64,000 bases of DNA from an uncultured Gemmatimonadaceae bacterium (GTDB taxonomy: Bacteria > Gemmatimonadota > Gemmatimonadetes > Gemmatimonadales > Gemmatimonadaceae): NCBI GenBank assembly GCA_963817955.1, contig CAWFQK010000004.1:1568001-1632000 (forward strand), in the 5' to 3' direction. Positions 4,508-62,343 of the stretch are shown one piece after another (within the stretch, counting starts at the first letter, position 1; each line of letters opens with the position of its first letter). A program made the translations under genes and the position numbers. The notes under the pieces were generated by a model that saw only the letters and a list, made by a program, of their open reading frames with translations, was not told the origin of the DNA and made no database searches.

Positions 4508-5030
4508 GGGGGACACGGGACACGGGACACGGGACACGAGACAGGGGACACGAGACAGGGGACACTCACAACGCACAACTCACAACTGGAAACTCGAAAC
4601 TCGCCGACCGGTGGGCCGACGGCTACGGAGCAGCCAGCGACATCCAGCCGGTCACCACCCGGAGTCCAATCCGATCTCCCATGTCCTTCGTTCAGGATGA
4701 CAGGCCTTCGCGCAGGACGACAGGCATCGCGGGTGATCAGAGGTGAGTTGTCAGTTGTCAGTTGTCAGTTGTCAGTTGTCAGTATACGGGTCCTGTGCAC
4801 CAGGGCGCCTGGCTCGCAGGCCACAATCGCCGGTCGGCGAGGTTCGGGTATCCAGTTGTGAGTCATGAGTTGTGAGTTGTAAAAACGCACCACGCATCAC
4901 TCACAACTCACAACTCGAACCTGGCCGCCCGCTACGGAGCAGCCAGCGACATCCCGCCAGAATAGAGCCCGGAGCCCAATCCCCGCTGCACCGGCCGGCG
5001 CGAGTGGCTTGCGAGCCAGGGCCACCCGCG
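4508..5030. repeat. Composite intergenic repeat locus (copy A of dispersed family, plus inverted and partial cores)
   Basis: (GGGACAC/GAGACAG)n heptamers, CACAACT heptamers, core CTCGCCGACCGGTGGGCCGAC..TACGGAGCAGCCAGCGACATCCAGCC; inverted core CCGGTCGGCGAGGTTCG at ~4830; (AGTTGTC)n and (AGTTGTG)n arrays; second partial core at ~4900-5010. Confidence 0.9.
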
Positions 5031-7686: not shown

Positions 7687-8901
7687 ATGAATAGCAGCAT
7701 TCGACGAGCTGTTGCATTTGGCGCCGTGCTTTCGCTCGCCGCGTGTGCGCATCAGCCCGCCGTTACGCTGGCGGCAACGGTGCCCGCGATGGCGTCCGCG
7801 CCAGGGCCTGCACCTGAGCGCTGGCTCGGGCTCATCGGCGAGTACGATACACCGGCCGGAATGCGGATCGTGCTCGAGGACGGTGGACATCTGCTGTTTG
7901 CCGACACGACGCGGCACAGCATGCCGCTGACCGAGCGCTCCCGCAATGTGTTCGACATCAGCCGCGACGCTTCAGCGGCGCTGCTCGGCGCACCGTCTGA
8001 CGAACTCCAGTTCGTACGCGATGCGTCGGACCGCGCGACAGAGGCCGTTGCAGACGGCGTGCGATTGCTCCGGCGCACCATCGAACCACTACCGGGGACG
8101 AACCAGCTCCGCATCGCACCGCTGCGCCCGGTGGAGGAATTGCGTGCCGAAGCGATCGCCGCATCACCGCCGCAGGAGCCGGGGACATTCCGGCCGTCGG
8201 ATCTCGTCGAGCTCACGCAACTCGACTCGACGATCAAGCTCGAGATCCGCTACGCAACCACCAACAACTTCCTCGGCACCCGCTTCTACGATCAGGCGCG
8301 CGCCTTCATGCAGCGTCCGGCGGCTGACGCCGTGGTGCGCGCCAATCAGTGGCTCCGGCCGCTCGGCTACGGCTTACTCGTGCACGATGCGTATCGCCCC
8401 TGGTACGTGACGAAGATGTTCTGGGACGCGACGCCGCCGGAGAAACGCTGGCTCGTCGCCAATCCCGCGCAGGGATCGCGGCACAATCGCGGTGCGGCCG
8501 TCGACCTCACGCTCTACGCGCTCGCGACGGGTCAGCCCGCCGAGATGCCAAGCACATACGACGAGAGCACTGACCGCGCCTACGCGGACTATCCGGGCGG
8601 CACATCGCTACAGCGCTGGCATCGCGCGCTGCTGCGGCGCGCGATGGAAGCGCAGGGGTTCACCGTGAACCCCACCGAATGGTGGCACTTCGATTACCGT
8701 GACTGGCGGAACTATCGTATTGGCAACGTGCCGTTCGAGGGGGTGCGAGACATGGGCGGGGGACACGGGACGCGAGAAACTCACAACGTACAACTCACAA
8801 CTGGCAACTCGAACCTCGCCGACCGGTGGGTCGACCGGTACGGAGCAGCCAGCGACACCCAGCCGGCTCACAGAGATCCTTCGCTTGGCTCAGGAGGATA
8901 G
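7687..8901 (+). CDS. D-alanyl-D-alanine dipeptidase (M15D, VanX/DdpX-like) lipoprotein; ORF reads into repeat copy B
   Basis: Lipobox LAAC; IRYATTNNF, DAYRPW, SRHNRGAAVDLT, EWWHFDY. Confidence 0.9.
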   Translation: MNSSIRRAVAFGAVLSLAACAHQPAVTLAATVPAMASAPGPAPERWLGLIGEYDTPAGMRIVLEDGGHLLFADTTRHSMPLTERSRNVFDISRDASAALLGAPSDELQFVRDASDRATEAVADGVRLLRRTIEPLPGTNQLRIAPLRPVEELRAEAIAASPPQEPGTFRPSDLVELTQLDSTIKLEIRYATTNNFLGTRFYDQARAFMQRPAADAVVRANQWLRPLGYGLLVHDAYRPWYVTKMFWDATPPEKRWLVANPAQGSRHNRGAAVDLTLYALATGQPAEMPSTYDESTDRAYADYPGGTSLQRWHRALLRRAMEAQGFTVNPTEWWHFDYRDWRNYRIGNVPFEGVRDMGGGHGTRETHNVQLTTGNSNLADRWVDRYGAASDTQPAHRDPSLGSGG

Positions 8902-8962
8902 GCATCGCGGGTACTGTGATCAGTTGTGAGTTGTGAGTTGTGAGTTGTGAGTTGTAAAAACG
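8754..8962 (+). repeat. Dispersed repeat copy B with distal inverted (AGTTGTG)n arm
   Basis: GGGACAC, CACAACT, CGAACCTCGCCGACCGGTGGGTCGACCGGTACGGAGCAGCCAGCGACACCCAGCC; ends in AGTTGTG array + TAAAAACG as in copy A. Confidence 0.9.
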
Positions 8963-9599
8963 GACCCCGGGTGACTGCCCGGCACAATTCTATTTCGCTG
9001 TGAACGTGACGCGACGCAATGTCACCGAACCTTCGCGAGGGTCATTTGGGGCGCCGGATCAATTCCTCCCCTTTCGCTCGGAATTGTCGCATCACGATGC
9101 AGTCTGGCGAGGTGGACGTCTCGGAATGTGGGTGGTTGGTAAGCGGAATGAAGCCACCGCGCCCCGATCCTGGCCCGCCATGGGTGGCCGTTATTCGGCC
9201 GCGGCCAAAGTAACGCTGCCGCGCGCGGTTCTCGAACGTGCCGCGGCCATGATCCGCCATGCCGCGCTATCGATCGGCGTGCCGCGCTATCGATCCGCAT
9301 GCCGCGCGCAGGCCGCAGAACTCCGCAAGATGAAGTCGGCGTACCGCGCGAGCGGCGGCCGTGCCAGTCCAAGTCGGTCGGGTAGGCGCATGGACAACCG
9401 GTGTTGCCGCGCGCGCTGGTCGGATGCCGCCGATTTTTGAGCCGTGCCGCGCTTGGACCCGCACGCACAAACGTCTTCCGCCGGCGCCCCGCGCCGGATG
9501 CGACTACGGCGCGAGTTGCATCCGTCGCGCCGCGATCGGAGGCCAGAAGCCGCGGCGAGAGCACGTTGCGCCGCGCCCGGGAGCCTGACGCCACTGCCG

Positions 9600-9810
9600 G
9601 GCGGCGCAGCGGGGATTGGACTCCGGGCTGGATGTCGCTGGCTACCGATCGCGAGGCGGGGATTGGACTCCGGGCGCTATTCTGGCTGGCTGTCGCTGGC
9701 TGCTCCGTACCGGTCGACCCACCGGTCGGCGAGGTTCGAGTTTCCAGTTGTGCGTTGTGAGTTTCTCGCGTGTCTCGTGTCTAATGTCCCATGTCTCGTG
9801 TCCCGTCCCC
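9600..9810 (-). repeat. Dispersed repeat copy C
   Basis: Reverse complement of the same core and heptamer arm, starting immediately after the permease stop; duplicated GGGGATTGGACTCCGGGC segment. Confidence 0.9.
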
Positions 9811-16726: not shown

Positions 16727-16935
16727 ACACGGGCGGGGGACACGGGACACGGGACACGGGACACGGGACACGGGACACGGGACACGGGACACGGGACACT
16801 CACAACGCATAACTCACAACTGGACACTCGAACCTCGCCGACCGGTGGGCCGATCGCTACGGAGCAGCCAGCGACATCCAGCCGGTCGATACCCGGAGTC
16901 CAGACCGCGCTGCGCCGGCCCGCGAGAGTGGCTCC
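16727..16935 (+). repeat. Dispersed repeat copy D
   Basis: About 9 perfect GGGACAC units, then CACAAC arm and conserved core. Confidence 0.92.
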
Positions 16936-16943
16936 TTACCGCG

Positions 16944-17327
16944 TCAGCAGGGTCCGCCCGTGCAGGCGAAATAGGCCTCAACGCAGCGCATGAACACCAA
17001 CGGGTACCATGCGGCGCACAACGGCGGCGTTTCCGCGGCAGCTTCCGCAGACACGGCCTCGGCAAGCGAGGGAGCCCGGCCGTCCAGGCCCGCGAAGACC
17101 GCCTTCAATGCGATCACGCAACGTTCCGGCATCTCCTCTCGCTGGCGGAACTCGCACGCAAACGTTGTCGCAGATGCCATCAACTCCGCCTCTGCCTCCA
17201 CTGACCGGTGCTCGCGCGCCGAACGGAGTGCTCGCACCAAACGCCCGGTTCCGCTGCGTTCCAGGGCGGTGGGGGGCACCAGGTGCGAACTGGCCAAAGC
17301 GAATTGGCAGGAGGGAGCGAGCATCAT
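16944..17327 (-). CDS. Hypothetical helical protein between repeat copies D and E
   Basis: PERCVIALKAVF...VFMRCVEAYF amphipathic helices; start uncertain. Confidence 0.55.
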   Translation of the reverse strand: MMLAPSCQFALASSHLVPPTALERSGTGRLVRALRSAREHRSVEAEAELMASATTFACEFRQREEMPERCVIALKAVFAGLDGRAPSLAEAVSAEAAAETPPLCAAWYPLVFMRCVEAYFACTGGPC

Positions 17328-17451
17328 GCCAAACACCATAGGCTATAGCGTAAATCCGCGAAGCGGGTCGTCCCCCCCGGCCATGTCAGAGAAAAAGCGA
17401 CAGGCAATGCTCACATTTCCGTGAACCGTTGACCGTTACATGGTGCGGCGT

Positions 17452-17629
17452 ATTCTGGACTCCGGGTTTTGACCGGCTGGGTGTCGCTGGCTGCTCCGTA
17501 GCGGTCGGCCCACCGGTCGGCGAGGTTCGAGTGTCCAGTTGTGAGTTGTGCGTTGTGAGTTTCTCGTGTCTCTGTCCTGTCTTTTCGTGTCTCGTGTCCC
17601 GTGTCCCGTGTCCCGTGTCCCGTGTCCCA
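17452..17629 (-). repeat. Dispersed repeat copy E
   Basis: Reverse-complement core and GGGACAC arm directly after the MBL gene stop. Confidence 0.92.
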
Positions 17630-17631
17630 CC

Positions 17632-19014
17632 TCAGAACGTGCACCGCGCTCCGCGCTCGGGAACGTTCACGTCGTAGCCGTCGCCGCGAAGGATCTCGGA
17701 AAATGCGTCCTGGGCGCGTGCTTCGCCGTGCACCAGATGCACCGGAAGCTTCCGATTGCTCGATCCGCGGACGAGGCTCAGCCATCGGTGTAGTTCACCG
17801 CGGTCGGCGTGCGCGCTGTAGCCGTTGAGCACCTCCACCCGAGCGCGAAGTGCCACTTCCTCTCCGTACACCTTGATGGTGGGGCGCCGCTCGACGATGC
17901 GCCGCCCGAGGGTGTGCTCGGCTTGAAAACCCACGATGAGGATGGTGTTCTTTGGATTGGAAGCGCCGTTCGCGAGGTGGTGCAGAATGCGGCCGGCCTC
18001 GGCCATGCCGGATGCCGCGATGATGATCATCGGCCCATGACGGTCGTTGAGCGCTTTCGACGCCGACGCGTCGCGCGCGAACTCAAGCCCCTCGAAATCG
18101 AACAAGTCGTCGACCGTGGTCACGAGCTCTTCGCGGCGATCGTACGCGTCGGGATTCATCGCGAATACCGCCGTTGCAGCGATCGCCAGCGGGCTATCGA
18201 CGACGATGGGAATGGCCGGGATAGCCTTCGCGCGGGTGAGCCGGTGCAAGTCGTACAGCAGCTCCTGCGTCCGGCCAACGGCGAACGCGGGGATCAGCAC
18301 ACGACCGCCAGCCGCCGCGGTCTCGCGAATGATGCGGCCGAGTTGGTCAGGAAGGTCGGCCACAGACGCATGATCGCGGTCGCCATACGTCGACTCCATG
18401 ATGACGACGTCGGCATCCTGCGGCGGGCGCGGATCGCGGATGATCGGCAGCCCCCATCGTCCGATGTCACCAGAATACACGAGTCTGCGGCTGACGCCAT
18501 TCTCGGTGCAATCGAGCACAATCGACGCAGACCCAAGAATGTGTCCCGCCTCGACGAAGGTGGCGCGGATGCCCGGCGCGACATCGAAGGGCTGGTCATA
18601 CGGAATGCCGGTCATGCGTTTCATCAAACGCGTCACGTCATCCTGATCATATAACGGACCGACGAACGAGCGTTTGCGGCGCGCCAGGTACTCCGCGTCC
18701 TTCTCCTGGATGTGCGCGGAGTCAGCGAGCATGATGGCACACAGGTCGCGCGTGGGCGGCGTTGCGTACACGGGACGTTCGAATCCGTATCGTGCGAGCA
18801 ACGGCAACCGGCCGGAGTGATCGATGTGCGCGTGCGACAGCAACACCGCGTTCACCTCGTTCGCCCGGAAGGGGATCTCCAGGTTGCGCGCATTGGACTC
18901 GGCGCGCCGCCCCTGATACATCCCGAAATCGAGTGCGACCGTCGAACTGCCGACGTGGATGAGATGGCACGAGCCGGTGACTTCGCGCGCCGCGCCTAGA
19001 AAGGTGATGTCCAT
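17632..19014 (-). CDS. MBL-fold beta-CASP metallo-hydrolase (RNA-processing family)
   Basis: GAAREVTGSCH, LSHAHIDHSG, AGHILGS, MESTYG, FAVGRTQ, GFQAEHTLGR, YSAHAD. Confidence 0.93.
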   Translation of the reverse strand: MDITFLGAAREVTGSCHLIHVGSSTVALDFGMYQGRRAESNARNLEIPFRANEVNAVLLSHAHIDHSGRLPLLARYGFERPVYATPPTRDLCAIMLADSAHIQEKDAEYLARRKRSFVGPLYDQDDVTRLMKRMTGIPYDQPFDVAPGIRATFVEAGHILGSASIVLDCTENGVSRRLVYSGDIGRWGLPIIRDPRPPQDADVVIMESTYGDRDHASVADLPDQLGRIIRETAAAGGRVLIPAFAVGRTQELLYDLHRLTRAKAIPAIPIVVDSPLAIAATAVFAMNPDAYDRREELVTTVDDLFDFEGLEFARDASASKALNDRHGPMIIIAASGMAEAGRILHHLANGASNPKNTILIVGFQAEHTLGRRIVERRPTIKVYGEEVALRARVEVLNGYSAHADRGELHRWLSLVRGSSNRKLPVHLVHGEARAQDAFSEILRGDGYDVNVPERGARCTF

Positions 19015-19030
19015 GGCTCAGAATGATAAA

Positions 19031-19094
19031 CGTGTCCCGTGTCCCGTGTCCCGTGTCTCGTGTCTCGTGTCTCATGTCCCGTGTCTCATGTCCC
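19031..19094 (-). repeat. G(G/A)GACAC heptamer array without core
   Basis: About 9 heptamers overlapping and following the AI-2E gene stop. Confidence 0.85.
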
Positions 19095-33199: not shown

Positions 33200-33329
33200 G
33201 GTCAGTATACGGGTCATGCGCACCAGGGCGCCTGGCTTGCAGGCCACTAACGCCGGTCGGCGAGGTTCGAGTTTCCAGTGGTGAGTTGTGCGTTGTGAGT
33301 TTCTCGTGTCCCGTGGGACACGGGACACT
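33200..33329 (-). repeat. Dispersed repeat copy F (variant core, as at 4778-4846)
   Basis: GTCAGTATACGGGTC..CACCAGGGCGCCTGGCT..GCCGGTCGGCGAGGTTCGAGTTTCCAG..GTTGTGAG. Confidence 0.85.
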
Positions 33330-46839: not shown

Positions 46840-48567
46840 ATGAACGCCAGTTCTCTTCGCCATCTCACGCTGTACGTCACAGTATCGCTCGCCGGCGCGA
46901 CCGTCTCGCCCGACGCGCGGGCGCAATCCGTTCCGGCACTGGCGTCGTGCAACGGGCGCACCATCGATTCGCTCATCATCGACCCAGGTCGGCCACCGTT
47001 CGCCGGCAGCGCCCGCAAATGGCAAACGATTGCGCGGGCGTTTGGCTTGCACCACGCGACCACTCGGGCCGATGTCATTCGAACGTATCTGCTGTTCAGC
47101 CAGGGCGATGTCTGCTCTGCCGCTCGCGTTGCCGAGTCGGTCCGCGTCCTCCGCAGCCTGCCATTTCTGGCCTGGGCCACCGCCGCGACTCGATCGGATG
47201 CAGCCGGTGGCGTCGTCATCGACATCCATACCACGGACGAAATTCCCGTGCTCGTCTCGGGTCGCCTCCAGCACGGTGTTCCTTCCGCGCTCTCGCTCGG
47301 AAATGAAAACGTCGGCGGCCGCGGGCTCCGTCTCATCGCCGGTGGCGAACGCGGCCGCAGCCGTGCCTACCGCGGCAGCGTCAGAGTCGAAGTCGCGGAA
47401 TCCGCTCCGTTCGACCAACCGATCCTGACGCGTTTTCAAGCCGAGCGTGATCCGCTCGGGAGTCACGCCGAGATCGAACTGTCGCGCCTCTTTCTATCAG
47501 ACTTTCAGCGTGGTGCCTGGCACGCGAGCTTTCGGAACGGCGACGACTTCCCGATCATCCTCCGTCCCGTTGGCGACGACGAGGCCATCGAGGTACATGA
47601 GCGGCAATGGTCGGTCGGCGGCGTCTTTCGGTCGAGGCTCGGTCCGACCCTGGCACTCTGGGGCCCGGTGGCACTCGGCTCGACGCTCAGGCCCGCATCG
47701 CGCGTCCTCATCGTGTCGGACTCCGGCGCCGTCTCCTTCAACGATTCGTCGCTCGTCGGCCGCCTCGAGGCCGCTCACGCCGTTCGTCTCGGCGGAATGG
47801 TTGGATTACGCCGCGTTCGCTACATCACGCGTACCGGACTCGACGCATTGTTCGCACCCCAGGACATAATGATCGGCTGGCAGGTCGGCGGCGTGGCAGC
47901 GCCGGGAGCCGGCACGAGGCGCGATCTGCTGCTCGCCAACAGCATCTATCTGGGCGCCGCTTCGGCCAAGGCAGTGATCGTCGGGGATCTCGAAGCAGAG
48001 GCGAGCCGCGACTTCGCGGCGGGATCGCATCAATCAACCATCGCCAACGCACTGGTCGTCGCCCATTTCACGCCGACGCCGCGCCTCACGATCGGAGTCC
48101 AGGACAATTTTTCGAGCCTCGAACACGCCCAATTGCCGACGCAGCTTTCACTCTCCGATCCCGACGGCGGCGCACGCGGATATCTCGGATCGTCCATTGC
48201 CGGTGGCCGGCGGAACGTGGTGCGAACCGAAATCAGATGGGCTCACCCTCGCGCGCTCCGTCAAACCGATCTCGGATTCGCCCTGTTCGCCGATGCAGCA
48301 AGAATATGGGCCGGCGACGTGCCATATGGCGTCGACGCGGCTCGTCAGAGTATTGGAATCAGCCTGCTCGGGGCGTACCCAACGCAATCGAAACGATTGT
48401 ACCGGCTCGATTTCGCCATGCCGATTCAACGTGACCAGGGAAGAGGACTCGAGATTCGGTTCACGAGCGGGGATCCGACGATCGGGATCGCGAGGGAGCC
48501 AGGGGATGTTGCGCAAGGGAGGAGGGCGCCGGTAGCGGGGGGGTTGTTTGCTTGGCCTGGAAGATGA
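46840..48567 (+). CDS. Outer-membrane protein, BamA/TamA-like (POTRA-like region plus beta-barrel)
   Basis: Signal peptide; TRADVIR..LLF..GD...ESVRVLR.L.F; ENVGGRG; RGY loop; FADAARIW; YRLDFAMP. Confidence 0.7.
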   Translation: MNASSLRHLTLYVTVSLAGATVSPDARAQSVPALASCNGRTIDSLIIDPGRPPFAGSARKWQTIARAFGLHHATTRADVIRTYLLFSQGDVCSAARVAESVRVLRSLPFLAWATAATRSDAAGGVVIDIHTTDEIPVLVSGRLQHGVPSALSLGNENVGGRGLRLIAGGERGRSRAYRGSVRVEVAESAPFDQPILTRFQAERDPLGSHAEIELSRLFLSDFQRGAWHASFRNGDDFPIILRPVGDDEAIEVHERQWSVGGVFRSRLGPTLALWGPVALGSTLRPASRVLIVSDSGAVSFNDSSLVGRLEAAHAVRLGGMVGLRRVRYITRTGLDALFAPQDIMIGWQVGGVAAPGAGTRRDLLLANSIYLGAASAKAVIVGDLEAEASRDFAAGSHQSTIANALVVAHFTPTPRLTIGVQDNFSSLEHAQLPTQLSLSDPDGGARGYLGSSIAGGRRNVVRTEIRWAHPRALRQTDLGFALFADAARIWAGDVPYGVDAARQSIGISLLGAYPTQSKRLYRLDFAMPIQRDQGRGLEIRFTSGDPTIGIAREPGDVAQGRRAPVAGGLFAWPGR

Positions 48568-48770
48568 ACGGCGCGAACGGCTGACGGCGCTGACTCCCTG
48601 ACGGCGCTGACTCCCTAACTGCGCTGACTCCCTAACTGCGCTGACTCCCTAACTGCGCTGACTCCCTAACGGCGGCTTAGCACAAGGCGGACTTACGGCG
48701 GACTTACGACGGACTTACGGCGGACTTACGGCGGACTTACGGCGGACTTACGGCGGACTTACGGCGGCGG
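48568..48770 (+). repeat. Left arm of cassette: 13-bp terminal IR, 5x17-mer, 7x11-mer
   Basis: ACGGCGCGAACGG; (CT[GA]AC[GT]GCGCTGACTCC)x5 at 48581-48665; (GGCGGACTTAC)x7 at 48686-48762. Confidence 0.95.
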
Positions 48771-48834
48771 GCGATTGGGAGGGATTGAAGGGTTATGATT
48801 GCGCGTTCTCGTCCGAAATGCTCCAGCGTTGCGC

Positions 48835-49200
48835 ATGACGCTACACCGCAACCTCGCCGTCCTCGATGCAGCGGATCTCGTAGCTGGTGAGATCATGCAG
48901 CTGATCGCGTCCACTCCCCGGCTGCTGCACGTCGAGCAGCTCCGAGATTCCGCGCAATCCATCGGGGCGAATATCTCGGAAGGTTTCGGTCGCGGGCCCG
49001 GCGCAGACCGGGCGCGGTTCCTCCGAACCTCGCGTGCATCCGCTGAAGAGACCATCCGACACCTCCGCGGGAACCTCAACGCCAGCAGGATCCCGGAGAC
49101 AACGTACTGGCGAATGCACCATCGATTGGTAACGATCTCACGAATGCTCGACTCGCTGCTCCGCCACCCCGAATCCAAGGCTCGCAGCGATCGCTTCTAG
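48835..49200 (+). CDS. Four-helix-bundle protein (23S rRNA intervening-sequence protein / Avd-like family)
   Basis: HRNLAV...EQLRDSAQSIGANISEGFGR...RARFLRTSRASAEET...ISRMLDSL matches family motif QLRRAA.SI..NIAEG..R...FL.IARGS..E. Confidence 0.88.
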   Translation: MTLHRNLAVLDAADLVAGEIMQLIASTPRLLHVEQLRDSAQSIGANISEGFGRGPGADRARFLRTSRASAEETIRHLRGNLNASRIPETTYWRMHHRLVTISRMLDSLLRHPESKARSDRF

Positions 49201-49203
49201 AGA

Positions 49204-49386
49204 GTCAGCCGCCGATCGCCGCCTCCAGCCGCCGTCAGCCGCCGTCAGCCGCCGTCAGCCGCCGTCAGCCGCCGTCAGCCGCCGTCAGGGAGTCAGCGTA
49301 GTCAGGGAGTCAGCGTAGTCAGGGAGTTGGCGCAGTTAGGGAGTCAGCGCCGTCAGGGAGTCAGCGCAGTTAGCCGTTCGCGCCGT
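49204..49386 (-). repeat. Right arm of cassette: 10-mer array, 5x inverted 17-mer, 13-bp terminal IR
   Basis: (GCCGTCAGCC)x5+ at 49231-49288; GGAGTCAGCG..GT[CT]AG x5 at 49289-49373; CCGTTCGCGCCGT at 49374-49386. Confidence 0.95.
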
Positions 49387-50219
49387 CAAAGATCCCTCTT
49401 GTAAAAGGACTTTCCCACCACCCCCATCACACAGATGAGATACCCCACCGCATACCACACCGCCGTCCCACTCGGAATCGAGACATTCGCGAACGGTGAA
49501 AACGACAATGACCCGGTAAGTGGCGTCTGCATCTCGTATGCGGCGCGGCGCCACAGGGCCTCACTCGGCAGGATGAGGCTCGACACAACGCCGAGAGTCA
49601 CGATGTGCGCGCTCTGGGAAAAACCGCTCACCTGTTCGAGCCAGCCACCCATGAATGCGACCCCCTGAAGACCGAGCGCCAGTACCCCGCTCGTCAGGGT
49701 CGAGAACCACGTACCGAGCATGAAGGTCACGCCCAATACCAGCACACACTCGCCGGCAATCAGGAGAAAACCGCGTACCGGGTGCTCGGGCAGAATTCCC
49801 GTGGCGCCATACCCGACAGCTATGGTACCGAGGAACGTGAGCGCCACGTAAACGACGATCATGGCGACGAAACCGAGGTACTTGCCGAGCACAATCTGCC
49901 ATCGCGCGATGGGCTTGGTGGCGATCGCCTGGATCGTCCCCGAGCTGATCTCGCCGGCGATGGTATCGATCGACGTGAGAATCGTCATGACGACCGCGAG
50001 CAGGTCGCAGGTATAGAGGCCCACCATCAGCATCCCGCTCTCCACCTGATAGCGCACGAACGGCGACATCGACCGTCCCTGGAACTCGGCGACCTGCAGG
50101 CGAAGGGCAACCGTGAATACGGCGAGCAACAGCAGGGCGGCAATGAGCGCGGTCCACAGAATCTTCCGCCGCGCGGCTTCGCGCAATGTGATCCCGGCCA
50201 TGATCAAGGTGGCATTCAT
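49386..50219 (-). CDS. ABC-2 type transporter permease
   Basis: ITLREAARRK, EISSGTIQAIATKPIARWQIVLGKY, C-terminal FYKRDL. Confidence 0.88.
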   Translation of the reverse strand: MNATLIMAGITLREAARRKILWTALIAALLLLAVFTVALRLQVAEFQGRSMSPFVRYQVESGMLMVGLYTCDLLAVVMTILTSIDTIAGEISSGTIQAIATKPIARWQIVLGKYLGFVAMIVVYVALTFLGTIAVGYGATGILPEHPVRGFLLIAGECVLVLGVTFMLGTWFSTLTSGVLALGLQGVAFMGGWLEQVSGFSQSAHIVTLGVVSSLILPSEALWRRAAYEMQTPLTGSLSFSPFANVSIPSGTAVWYAVGYLICVMGVVGKSFYKRDL

Positions 50220-51139
50220 AGTCCCTTATCCTCGCCGACGAGTGAGACGAACATGTCCTCGAGCGACACGCGCTGCGGCGTCACGCGAAAGATGTCAGTC
50301 CCAGCGCCCACGAGATGGCGCATGATATCGGGCAGCACAGTGTCCGACGGGACGCTGAAGGTGAGTTGGCCGGCGTCGAATCGCGCCGCGGTGGCCCACT
50401 GCGCCAAGCCGCCAACCGCACCGTCCGAGACGTTCGCTGCGTGCACGGTGACCTGGAGTCCTTCGATGGCGGTCCCGAGGGACTGCGTCGCCACGACTTC
50501 ACCTGCCTTGATGAAGGCGACGCGGTCGCAGGTGACCTCGATCTCGCTGAGCAGATGCGAGTTCAGAAAGACCGTGGCACCCCGATCGCGCTGCGCACGA
50601 ATGACGTCGCGCACCATGCGTCGACCCATTGGATCGAGGCCAGACGTGGGCTCGTCGAGGAAGATGAGGTCGGGATCATGAATCAACGCCTGGGCCAAGC
50701 CAAGTCGCTGCAGCATGCCTTTGGAGAACCCGCGAATTCGCCGCTGCGCATGTGCGCTGATCCCTACCATCTCCAGCGCTTCCGGCACGCGGGCGCGGAG
50801 GCTGGCAGCCGACATCCCGGCCAAGCGACCGTGCAGCGACAACAACTCCGACGCCGTGAGCCAATCGTAGAACCGAAAATCCTCGGGCAGGAACCCGATC
50901 CTCCGCCGGACGGGCACGTCGCCCGCCGGTTTTCCGAGGACCATGGCCTGGCCGCTGGACGGCCGAACCAGTCCGAGCAGCATCTTGATTGATGTACTCT
51001 TGCCCGCGCCGTTGGGGCCGAGGAATCCGAATATCTCGCCGCGTTCGACCGTCAGCGACAGGCCTCGCACGGCCGCGTGCGCGCCAAAGAGCTTCCGAAG
51101 GTCGTGCGTTTCGATGGCGGGTCCAGAGGAGGAAGTCAT
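50216..51139 (-). CDS. ABC transporter ATP-binding protein
   Basis: GPNGAGKS, FSKGMLQR, LDEPTSGLDP, SHLL. Confidence 0.93.
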   Translation of the reverse strand: MTSSSGPAIETHDLRKLFGAHAAVRGLSLTVERGEIFGFLGPNGAGKSTSIKMLLGLVRPSSGQAMVLGKPAGDVPVRRRIGFLPEDFRFYDWLTASELLSLHGRLAGMSAASLRARVPEALEMVGISAHAQRRIRGFSKGMLQRLGLAQALIHDPDLIFLDEPTSGLDPMGRRMVRDVIRAQRDRGATVFLNSHLLSEIEVTCDRVAFIKAGEVVATQSLGTAIEGLQVTVHAANVSDGAVGGLAQWATAARFDAGQLTFSVPSDTVLPDIMRHLVGAGTDIFRVTPQRVSLEDMFVSLVGEDKGL

Positions 51140-54802: not shown

Positions 54803-54962
54803 GGATTGGGCTCCGGGTGTTGACCGGCTGGATGTCGCTGGCTGCTCCGTACCGGTCGGCCCACCGGTCGGCGAGGTTCGAGTTTCCAGTTGTGAGTTGT
54901 GCGTTGTGAGTGTCCCGTGTCCCGTGTCCCGTGTCCCGTGTCCCGTGTCTTGTGTCTTGTGT
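54803..54962 (-). repeat. Dispersed repeat copy G
   Basis: Reverse-complement core and GGGACAC arm directly after the serine hydrolase stop. Confidence 0.92.
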
Positions 54963-62303: not shown

Positions 62304-62310
62304 GCGCGGA

Positions 62311-62343
62311 TAGGGAGCCAGCGCAGTTTAGGGAGTCAGCGCG
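62311..62343. repeat. Two orphan copies of the 17-mer cassette unit
   Basis: TAG GGAGCCAGCGCAGTTTAG GGAGTCAGCGCG, compare GGAGTCAGCGCAGTTAG at 49357. Confidence 0.7.

Follow-up and report, generated by a model that had tools for sequence, protein, structure and literature searches.

The window analysed here is a stretch of 64,000 nucleotides (nt) from the genome of an uncultured soil bacterium of the Gemmatimonadaceae (G000, with contigs cited as C1, C2 and C4), a 4.53-Mb assembly of nine contigs with 64% G+C that is 94% complete. At positions 48568-49386 the window holds a discrete unit of 819 bp, placed between the stop codons of two genes, in which a small gene (C4:1616835 in the assembly) is enclosed by inverted arrays of tandem repeats; we refer to this unit as the cassette. 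It was first singled out in a reading of the sequence letters by a model, called the original prediction below. Taken as a whole, the interval is best explained as a complete copy of a selfish, insertion-type hairpin cassette, a reading to which we give a probability of roughly 0.55.

The cassette is read on the + strand in the order terminal repeat, arrays, leader, gene, arrays, terminal repeat. Its left end is a terminal inverted repeat of 13 nt, ACGGCGCGAACGG (48568-48580), which together with the preceding TGA reads TGA(A)CGGCGCGAAC; the same terminus is found at 19 outer ends genome-wide. It is followed by a left outer array of the unit ACGGCGCTGACTCCCTA (48584-48674; period 17, 5.4 copies, 95% matches) and by a left inner array of the unit GGCGGACTTAC (48686-48767; period 11, 7.5 copies, 97% matches), and a leader (48768-48834) leads from the arrays to the start codon. 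The four-helix-bundle gene (23S_rRNA_IVP / TIGR02436; 48835-49200) begins with ATG and encodes 121 amino acids (aa) plus stop. On the other side, the right inner array is built of the unit GTCAGCCGCC (49204-49288; period 10, 8.5 copies, 89% matches) and is an imperfect complement of the left inner array, the right outer array repeats the reverse complement of the left 17-nt unit (49274-49370; period 17, 5.6 copies, 85% matches), and the unit is closed by a second terminal inverted repeat of 13 nt, CCGTTCGCGCCGT (49374-49386). All these features lie on the + strand, and the array values are those of Tandem Repeats Finder.

The longest inverted repeat of the locus has arms of 110 nt each, at 48568-48677 and 49277-49386, which are 92% complementary and leave 599 nt between them. 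Folded as RNA, the interval 48560-49395 reaches -501.3 kcal/mol, whereas 20 shuffles give -346.3 +/- 7.0 (z = -22). The two inner arrays, of 11-mers and of 10-mers, extend the stem, pairing with regular one-base bulges, and the total stem including them is about 190 bp long, with the open reading frame (ORF) in the loop. The boundaries of the cassette agree with the ends common to its paralogous copies. The original prediction had described a mirror-symmetric repeat cassette with the same number of 17-mer copies on both arms, inner arrays that are imperfect reverse complements of each other, and a transcript that folds as a long stem around the ORF; the four arrays, the complementary arms, the terminal repeats and the fold bear out this description. 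The two inner arrays have been homogenised for different variants of the 10-nt unit of the family, GGCGGCTTAC, the left one for an inserted A (11 nt) and the right one for a T->G change, and thus the arrays expand independently on each arm and not as mirror copies.

A scan for sigma-70 promoters and terminators, whose consensus may not fit this phylum, found nothing inside the element, leader included. Among sequencing runs, this DNA was matched in three low-share soil DNA runs of one study and in no RNA run. The soil runs give scattered short contigs over 47500-50500, which show loose ends at 48565-48568, which means that the arm abuts other flanks elsewhere, and only that; in these three runs no contig crosses the cassette site, and there is no usable joint. 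One soil contig with a skip 49029>49318, flanked by 25 nt on either side, is not trusted.

The 121-aa protein matches PF05635 with 58.7 bits (cut-off 33.8) over residues 6-106 and TIGR02436 with 60.3 bits (cut-off 24), so that both curated cut-offs are passed and the family membership proposed in the original prediction is confirmed. The nearest solved structure is 2gsc_A, a weak sequence match (E = 0.0086); PDB 2GSC has a four-helix-bundle fold and forms a pentameric ring. In four orthologue pairs that align gap-free, pN is 0.08-0.22 and pS 0.59-0.68 (0.22 and 0.66 for the window gene against the copy of the relative G014), the remaining pairs, shifted by a one-codon indel, not being used; these values show purifying selection on a functional gene. 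PF05635 is present in 179 of the 301 genomes of our phylum sample, often in 5-15 copies each, and to our knowledge no function is known for the family outside diversity-generating retroelements (DGRs). Some PF05635 matches (L045, L064 and others) are part of open frames that run over 500-865 codons (531, 865, 773 and 618 are examples); such long frames may have arisen by chance, the DNA being rich in G+C, or the domain may belong to a larger gene.

The cassette occupies the entire gap between two convergent TGA stops. The upstream host gene (46840-48567, + strand) has its TGA directly before the element, and the convergent host gene, an ABC-2 permease (49386-50219, - strand), has its stop codon at 49386-49388 and one base, 49386, in common with the element: the right terminus plus the next two bases reads ...GCCGTCA, which is the permease stop on the - strand. 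Both contacts had been noted in the original prediction and are exact, the upstream ORF ending at 48567 and the element starting at 48568. Its label "OMP gene" (outer membrane protein) for the upstream gene corresponds to a sub-threshold, weak Omp85-like match, 19.9 bits against a cut-off of 24.

Contact with stop codons is not peculiar to this copy. The terminal motif has 23 matches in the genome, 19 of which are outer ends carrying ACGGCGCGAAC(G/T)GCT(G/A)AC. At ten of the 19, an incoming open frame (150-799 codons) meets its stop between -3 and +14 nt from the first element base; among random positions, the same distance and an open frame of at least 150 codons are found at 128 of 6000. Six of these ten frames, including those at either end of the cassette, stop at a TGA abutting or spanning the junction, and the other four are closed by the first TGA or TAA within the element. 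In the inward direction the terminus reads TGA-CGG-CGC-GAA-C.., the second phase meets a stop at +14 and the third at +48, and element ends close incoming frames in all three phases within 50 nt; moreover, two stops are present in every 17-mer (CTGAC or CTAAC, and GCTGAC). The element sits right at the 3' ends of genes and, since its stop-codon termini recur across the 17-mer family, contact with both stops is a family property. When all hairpin families are pooled, 24 of 152 ends abut stops, against 335 of 6000 random positions, a modest excess obtained with imprecise boundaries; because it is only modest, the strong effect belongs to the 17-mer family.

The arms of the cassette are not unique in the genome. 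Matches to them with 83-94% identity occur at about 25 other places, which cluster at C1:214-252 kb and C4:1133-1159 kb, and the 17-mer family as a whole comprises about a dozen elements. Among them the window copy alone bears the gene, which has been lost from the others except for a fragment in one. The gene-less relatives have the same termini, the same 17-mers, the 10-nt inner units and short loops. The copy with the fragment, at C1:251945-252407, has arms of 134 nt that are 99% complementary and keeps a piece of 166 nt with 86% identity to the window gene's 5' half, in opposite orientation; it is a decayed copy. Arms of the 17-mer family lie also between divergent and co-directional genes, and several copies are between convergent genes.

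The same organisation extends to nearly all long hairpins of this genome. Four of its five PF05635 genes lie inside long inverted repeats, with arms of 127, 121, 48 and 110 nt; a check of paralogue flanks for inverted arrays had been proposed in the original prediction. Comparison of the genome with itself gave 127 inverted-repeat loci, 87 of which span at least 150 nt, and 80 of these 87 fall into four arm families: 7 are of the 17-mer family, 6 of the type of locus L001, 24 of the type of loci L002 and L003, and 43 of a fourth type. Each family has a "master" gene, which encodes either a four-helix-bundle or a PD-(D/E)XK protein. In the fourth type, two complete members carry a 125-aa PD-(D/E)XK gene of the GxxExxY type (PF13366, 132 and 130 bits), L025 at C2:315561-316243 and L026 at C2:763880-764550. 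These are the only two PF13366 genes of the genome and both lie in hairpin loops, between arms with tandem units resembling AGAGAACTGCAAA; the arms and part of the loop recur in about 43 hairpins that have no gene and whose loops measure about 200 nt. As a consequence of this census, nearly every long hairpin of the genome belongs to a family with one or two gene-bearing copies. In the coverage profiles of the four cassette types, arms show 23-167 copies and gene cores 1-2.

Further copies or fragments of such arms were seen at other places. In the window itself, an 819-nt loop lies between 122-nt arms at 8746-9798, and the interval 16737-19094 has arms of 176 nt and a beta-CASP RNase-like gene (17635-19014, - strand); the loop ORFs of the further window hairpins have no Pfam match. 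Single arms of the L002 type are found at about 4562-4982, at 54826-54913 and at 33253-33300, and two 17-mer units at 62308-62342. At the L003 locus (C1:470815-474126) a gene-less hairpin of the same arm family stands upstream of the L003 cassette and is followed by a MazE-like antitoxin gene (23.6 bits, just under the cut-off) and then by a second small ORF; features of this locus are at its positions 70-300, 422-1040 and 1243-1410, and a 24-nt unit is repeated seven times between the left arm and the four-helix-bundle gene of L003.

Orthologues of the cassette gene (57-68% aa identity) are present in five other species of the genus, and each of the five lies between inverted arrays of units 16-17 nt long, the arms measuring 53 to 161 nt. 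The gene remains associated with its kind of arms from one species to the next. The unit itself differs, being ACGGCGCTGACTCCCTA in the window, ...CTGACTTCCGA... in G014 and CGCGGCTGCCGAACGG in G011, and in every case the change is found on both arms: the two arms stay complementary as the sequence changes. Three of these cassettes (G011, G007 and G001) share one syntenic site between conserved genes, with nucleotide identities of 82-86% in the flanks, 73-79% in the gene and 68-71% over the whole element. The outer stem of this trio has 85 pairs, 91.2% of them paired, and 17 pairs have changed on both sides, a number reached in 0 of 500 shuffles, slid registers giving 1-6; some of the compensated changes are confined to a single repeat unit and the unit that mirrors it. 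The G007 element is inverted as a whole with respect to its flanks; the complete unit can flip between its arms. At the corresponding site of the window genome, between two conserved convergent genes (C4:952421-952543), there is no cassette and no clean empty site. An array of about 75 nt of GGGACAC/GAGACAC heptamers is found there, followed by a short complementary piece, and similar GTGTCCC runs adjoin both PD-(D/E)XK cassettes.

On the permease side of the window cassette, the permease-ATPase pair has orthologues (about 70% nt identity) in 11 relatives, with neighbours that vary by genome; in the 10 relatives with a full permease this protein ends identically, ...RDL*, and no such arrays are present in the 420 nt past its stop. 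For the upstream gene, three relatives have orthologues (47-52% aa identity), and there too no cassette lies past the stop. The cassette follows neither flanking gene and, as the two genes are not adjacent in any of 40 relatives, the strict empty site that the original prediction had proposed to look for was not found; what the comparison yields is flanking-gene orthologues without the cassette.

The association of PF05635 genes with inverted repeats is wider than this genus. For each gene, the 450 nt on either side were compared, and their best local complementarity was taken as the bracket score; the loci scored are the best-scoring matches of each search and not a random draw, and kin among them are not independent. 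A score of at least 20 was reached at 41 of the 68 PF05635 loci of the phylum, with a direct-repeat control of 2/68. For 10 loci comprising those of the own genome plus the orthologues the value is 9/10, for 29 loci of the genus 19/29, and for the best 29 loci of the 301-genome phylum sample (L057, from an unpublished genome, left out) 13/29; none of 300 random ATG-started ORFs of 100-160 aa from this genome reaches it. In other phyla (Bacteroidota, Patescibacteria, Desulfobacteraceae, a gammaproteobacterium and others) the score is reached at 14 of 27 loci, with a direct-repeat control of 3/27; 29 loci were tabulated, two had too little flank, and L124 was dropped as a duplicate of L105. The cross-phylum arms are visible heptamer arrays, for example of TGGTCAC or ATTGGTC.

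On the reading preferred here, that of a selfish hairpin cassette, these elements probably are or were mobile, because they occupy different sites in different species, have many near-identical arms and form a decay series. The original prediction had called the cassette possibly mobile, and part of this stands: the arms belong to a dispersed family with gene-less copies, and the cassette follows neither flanking gene; the trio site, however, is vertically inherited, and mobility is what we infer from the patterns of occurrence. As for the mechanism, the PF05635 protein may act in trans on the repeat-built stems of its own family, the repeated units being its binding sites on hairpin or duplex nucleic acid, and its action would support the maintenance or copying of the master and of the gene-less copies. 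The arrangement would resemble that of a transposase with its MITEs (miniature inverted-repeat transposable elements), or of a REP-associated tyrosine transposase (RAYT) with its repetitive extragenic palindromes (REPs), without a known catalytic protein, and for this reason copying would probably be carried out by host replication or repair on extruded DNA hairpins. The absence of RNase III, documented below, may let the stems exceed 100 bp.

Several observations weigh against this reading. One PF05635 paralogue of the genome, L004, has no arms, and only 13 of the 29 loci from the phylum sample reach a score of 20. The window copy has no clean empty site, no insertion event or strain-level presence/absence was seen for it, and no target-site duplication is evident, the flanks of six copies being without a consistent direct repeat. 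The trio site cassette has been inherited vertically in three species over about 15-18% flank divergence, and may therefore be an old, essentially fixed resident that is not visibly hopping. In the window, the two 17-mer arms do not mirror each other in their unit variants, and the two inner arrays have been homogenised for different units; the arms are therefore not copied from one another at present. Purifying selection fits a host-beneficial function equally well as a selfish one, we know of no catalytic activity in the PF05635 family, and the binding of the arms by its protein stands as a proposal drawn from the sequences. Finally, it is a single phylogenetic contrast that connects stem length with RNase III.

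The strongest competitor, unlikely as we judge it, is that the locus works at the level of RNA. The element would be co-transcribed with its neighbours, and a double-strand-specific RNase would cut the stem, free the loop mRNA and trim the flanking 3' ends, pairing being selected in the RNA. This is the process known for the intervening sequences (IVSs) of rRNA genes, which are excised from the transcript by RNase III; according to PMC4990558, the IVS in helix 45 of Coxiella burnetii has a terminal stem of 28 bp and heptamers before a decaying S23p ORF in the loop. The very stable fold and the compensated stem changes are as expected for such an RNA, the gene is co-oriented with the upstream gene and has no promoter-like site inside the element, and in the core of the trio stem G.U cells outnumber A.C cells on the gene strand by 9 to 3. 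Over 41 loci with a score of at least 20, however, G.U and A.C mismatches on the gene strand number 69 and 58, which gives no usable strand bias, and the inversion of the whole element in G007 keeps the cassette but reverses the gene with respect to its neighbours.

The enzyme, too, seems to be missing. Profile searches with PF14622, PF00636 and TIGR02191 found no RNase III in the genome, at 94% completeness, and a tblastn search with the RNase III of two phylum-mates gave a best E of 1.0, which makes RNase III excision of the IVS type unlikely in this organism. Across the phylum sample, the RNase III domain is detected in none of the 130 genomes from families f1-f8 but in 19 of the 20 from families f9-f12; we found no paper on the absence of RNase III in Gemmatimonadetes in the open literature, subscription journals not being covered. 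There is a hint that the presence of RNase III goes with short stems. In family f10, which has RNase III and in which 15 of the 21 PF05635 matches were scored and the six shortest fragments left out, scores of at least 20 occur at 4/15 loci and of at least 30 at 0/15, with a maximum of 27.5, and in the genus of the window scores of at least 30 occur at 12/29 loci. In-frame stops are found in 11 of the 21 PF05635 matches of f10 and in 1 of 150 among the matches listed for the window genus. The suggestion of the original prediction that the transcript is processed, or cut by RNase III, thus finds no support in the genome or in the mismatch counts. Its description of a discrete cassette that has the stem-plus-ORF design of ORF-bearing rRNA IVSs and lies outside rRNA holds. 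In fact, no Rfam family attains its gathering score in the 64-kb window or in nine related loci, and 48300-49700 gives no match at E<=1; as the element is flanked by two protein genes and has no Rfam match, it is not an insertion in an rRNA gene.

A quite unlikely alternative is that the hairpin serves the host, as a two-way transcription barrier or a 3'-end stabiliser, the gene being either a domesticated passenger or an RNA- or DNA-binding factor used by the host. The filling of the space between convergent stops, here and in several family copies, would suit such a role, and so would the purifying selection on the gene, the stable inheritance of one site in three species and the fact that the scan found no ordinary terminator between the two flanking genes. 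The same arms are found, however, between divergent and co-directional genes, orthologues of the flanking genes do without the cassette in 10/10 and 3/3 relatives, and copy number, gene-less decay and family-specific arms are traits of selfish repeats.

It is very improbable that the locus is the remnant of a DGR, with the gene as an Avd accessory and the repeats as a decayed template/variable pair. Avd is a homologous small helical protein of the same superfamily that binds nucleic acid and a partner enzyme, one paper reportedly discusses PF05635 together with DGRs, and the genome does have one reverse transcriptase gene. This sole match to RVT_1 lies, however, at C4:732178, about 880 kb away and near none of the five PF05635 genes, the repeats of the cassette are inverted tandem arrays and not a direct template/variable pair, and the arms recur dozens of times without any reverse transcriptase; with neither an adjacent reverse transcriptase nor a direct template/variable pair, a DGR remnant was rejected for this locus. 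The original prediction had stated that no transposase, reverse transcriptase or rRNA is nearby, which holds for rRNA and reverse transcriptase and, as regards transposases, for the six neighbouring genes. Elsewhere in the genome, the transposases found (Mutator, rve) have other arms, and the Y1 transposase model PF01797 has 0 matches. Chance or an artefact of assembly was rejected as practically negligible: palindromic repeat arrays can be mis-assembled, but the fold has z = -22, 0/300 control ORFs are bracketed, the same design recurs in independent assemblies of five other species, and soil contigs end or continue at the same boundary. An integron cassette was dropped as a candidate, the copies being dispersed singles bracketed on both sides and not arrays with one attC each.

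The selfish hairpin cassette can be set beside several known systems. One is the REPtron, in which a RAYT, the gene of a Y1 (IS200/IS605-like) transposase, lies amid inverted copies of dispersed REPs of 20-40 nt. Both have a gene in one or two copies, flanked by inverted palindromic repeats that are dispersed between genes, and each repeat family has its own gene; unlike the RAYT, the cassette gene encodes a four-helix bundle (PD-(D/E)XK in the sister family) and not a Y1 protein, and its arms measure 50-190 nt and are made of tandem units. MITEs with an autonomous insertion sequence (IS) are alike in having few gene-bearing and many internally deleted copies with shared terminal inverted repeats, one of which here keeps a gene fragment; they differ in that the cassette has no cognate transposase and no visible target-site duplication, and ends on stop codons. 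DGRs share with the cassette a member of the same superfamily, but the window gene has no adjacent reverse transcriptase and no template/variable repeats.

Like rRNA IVSs such as those of Coxiella burnetii helix 45 and Leptospira (PMC4990558), the cassette has a stem made by complementary termini, a loop gene of this protein family and short tandem repeats between stem and start codon, and both are regarded as selfish elements. Unlike them, it does not lie in an rRNA gene, its stem is 110-190 bp long and made of 17-, 11- and 10-nt units (28 bp in Coxiella), its gene is under purifying selection and not decaying as in Coxiella, it belongs to a multi-copy family with gene-less derivatives, and no RNase III gene was found in its host. 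A further comparison is offered by the heptamer arrays of GGGAATC in Xanthomonas, with 70-75 convergent pairs (PMC4692102), and of TAACTGA in Beggiatoaceae (PMC4679880). In both cases short units are repeated in tandem between genes, and the arrays often stand in convergent pairs that could fold into stem-loops; the arms of PF05635 genes across phyla are heptamer arrays too, whereas the units of the present cassette measure 17, 11 and 10 nt. No four-helix-bundle or IVS gene is mentioned in PMC4692102 or PMC4679880, where the terms 'four helix', '23S', 'S23' and 'intervening' have 0 occurrences. Nor did we find, in open full text with subscription journals not covered, any paper linking PF05635 or GxxExxY genes to intergenic hairpin or tandem-repeat arms. 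What is already known in kind is the IVS-type element, here outside rRNA and with MITE-like derivatives; what is new are the 16-17-nt units, the stop-codon termini, the census of four families, the flipped orthologue and the missing RNase III.

A wider view can be put forward tentatively, with the odds against it. Four-helix-bundle and GxxExxY PD-(D/E)XK proteins would be the trans factors of a class of hairpins that extends across phyla, and rRNA IVSs, heptamer or short tandemly repeated repetitive (STRR) arrays and the present cassettes would form one superfamily, with stem length capped by the RNase III of the host. Each subfamily of these proteins would recognise the units repeated in tandem in its own stems, and neither transposase nor reverse transcriptase would be used; in Gemmatimonadetes without detected RNase III, stems would reach 100-190 bp and genes would stay intact.

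The window locus is an unusually clear case of such an element, since its arms are long and can be aligned between species, its gene is intact and under selection, and the relation of master to derivatives can be followed for four families. Its repeat units are candidate binding sites of the protein, and the lack of a detectable RNase III in the lineage argues against the textbook IVS mechanism here and suggests a reason for the long stems. rRNA IVSs and bacterial heptamer arrays are old observations that have so far been without explanation; if the link between protein and stem is true, one explanation would account both for a large protein family and for a large class of repeats that are orphans at present.

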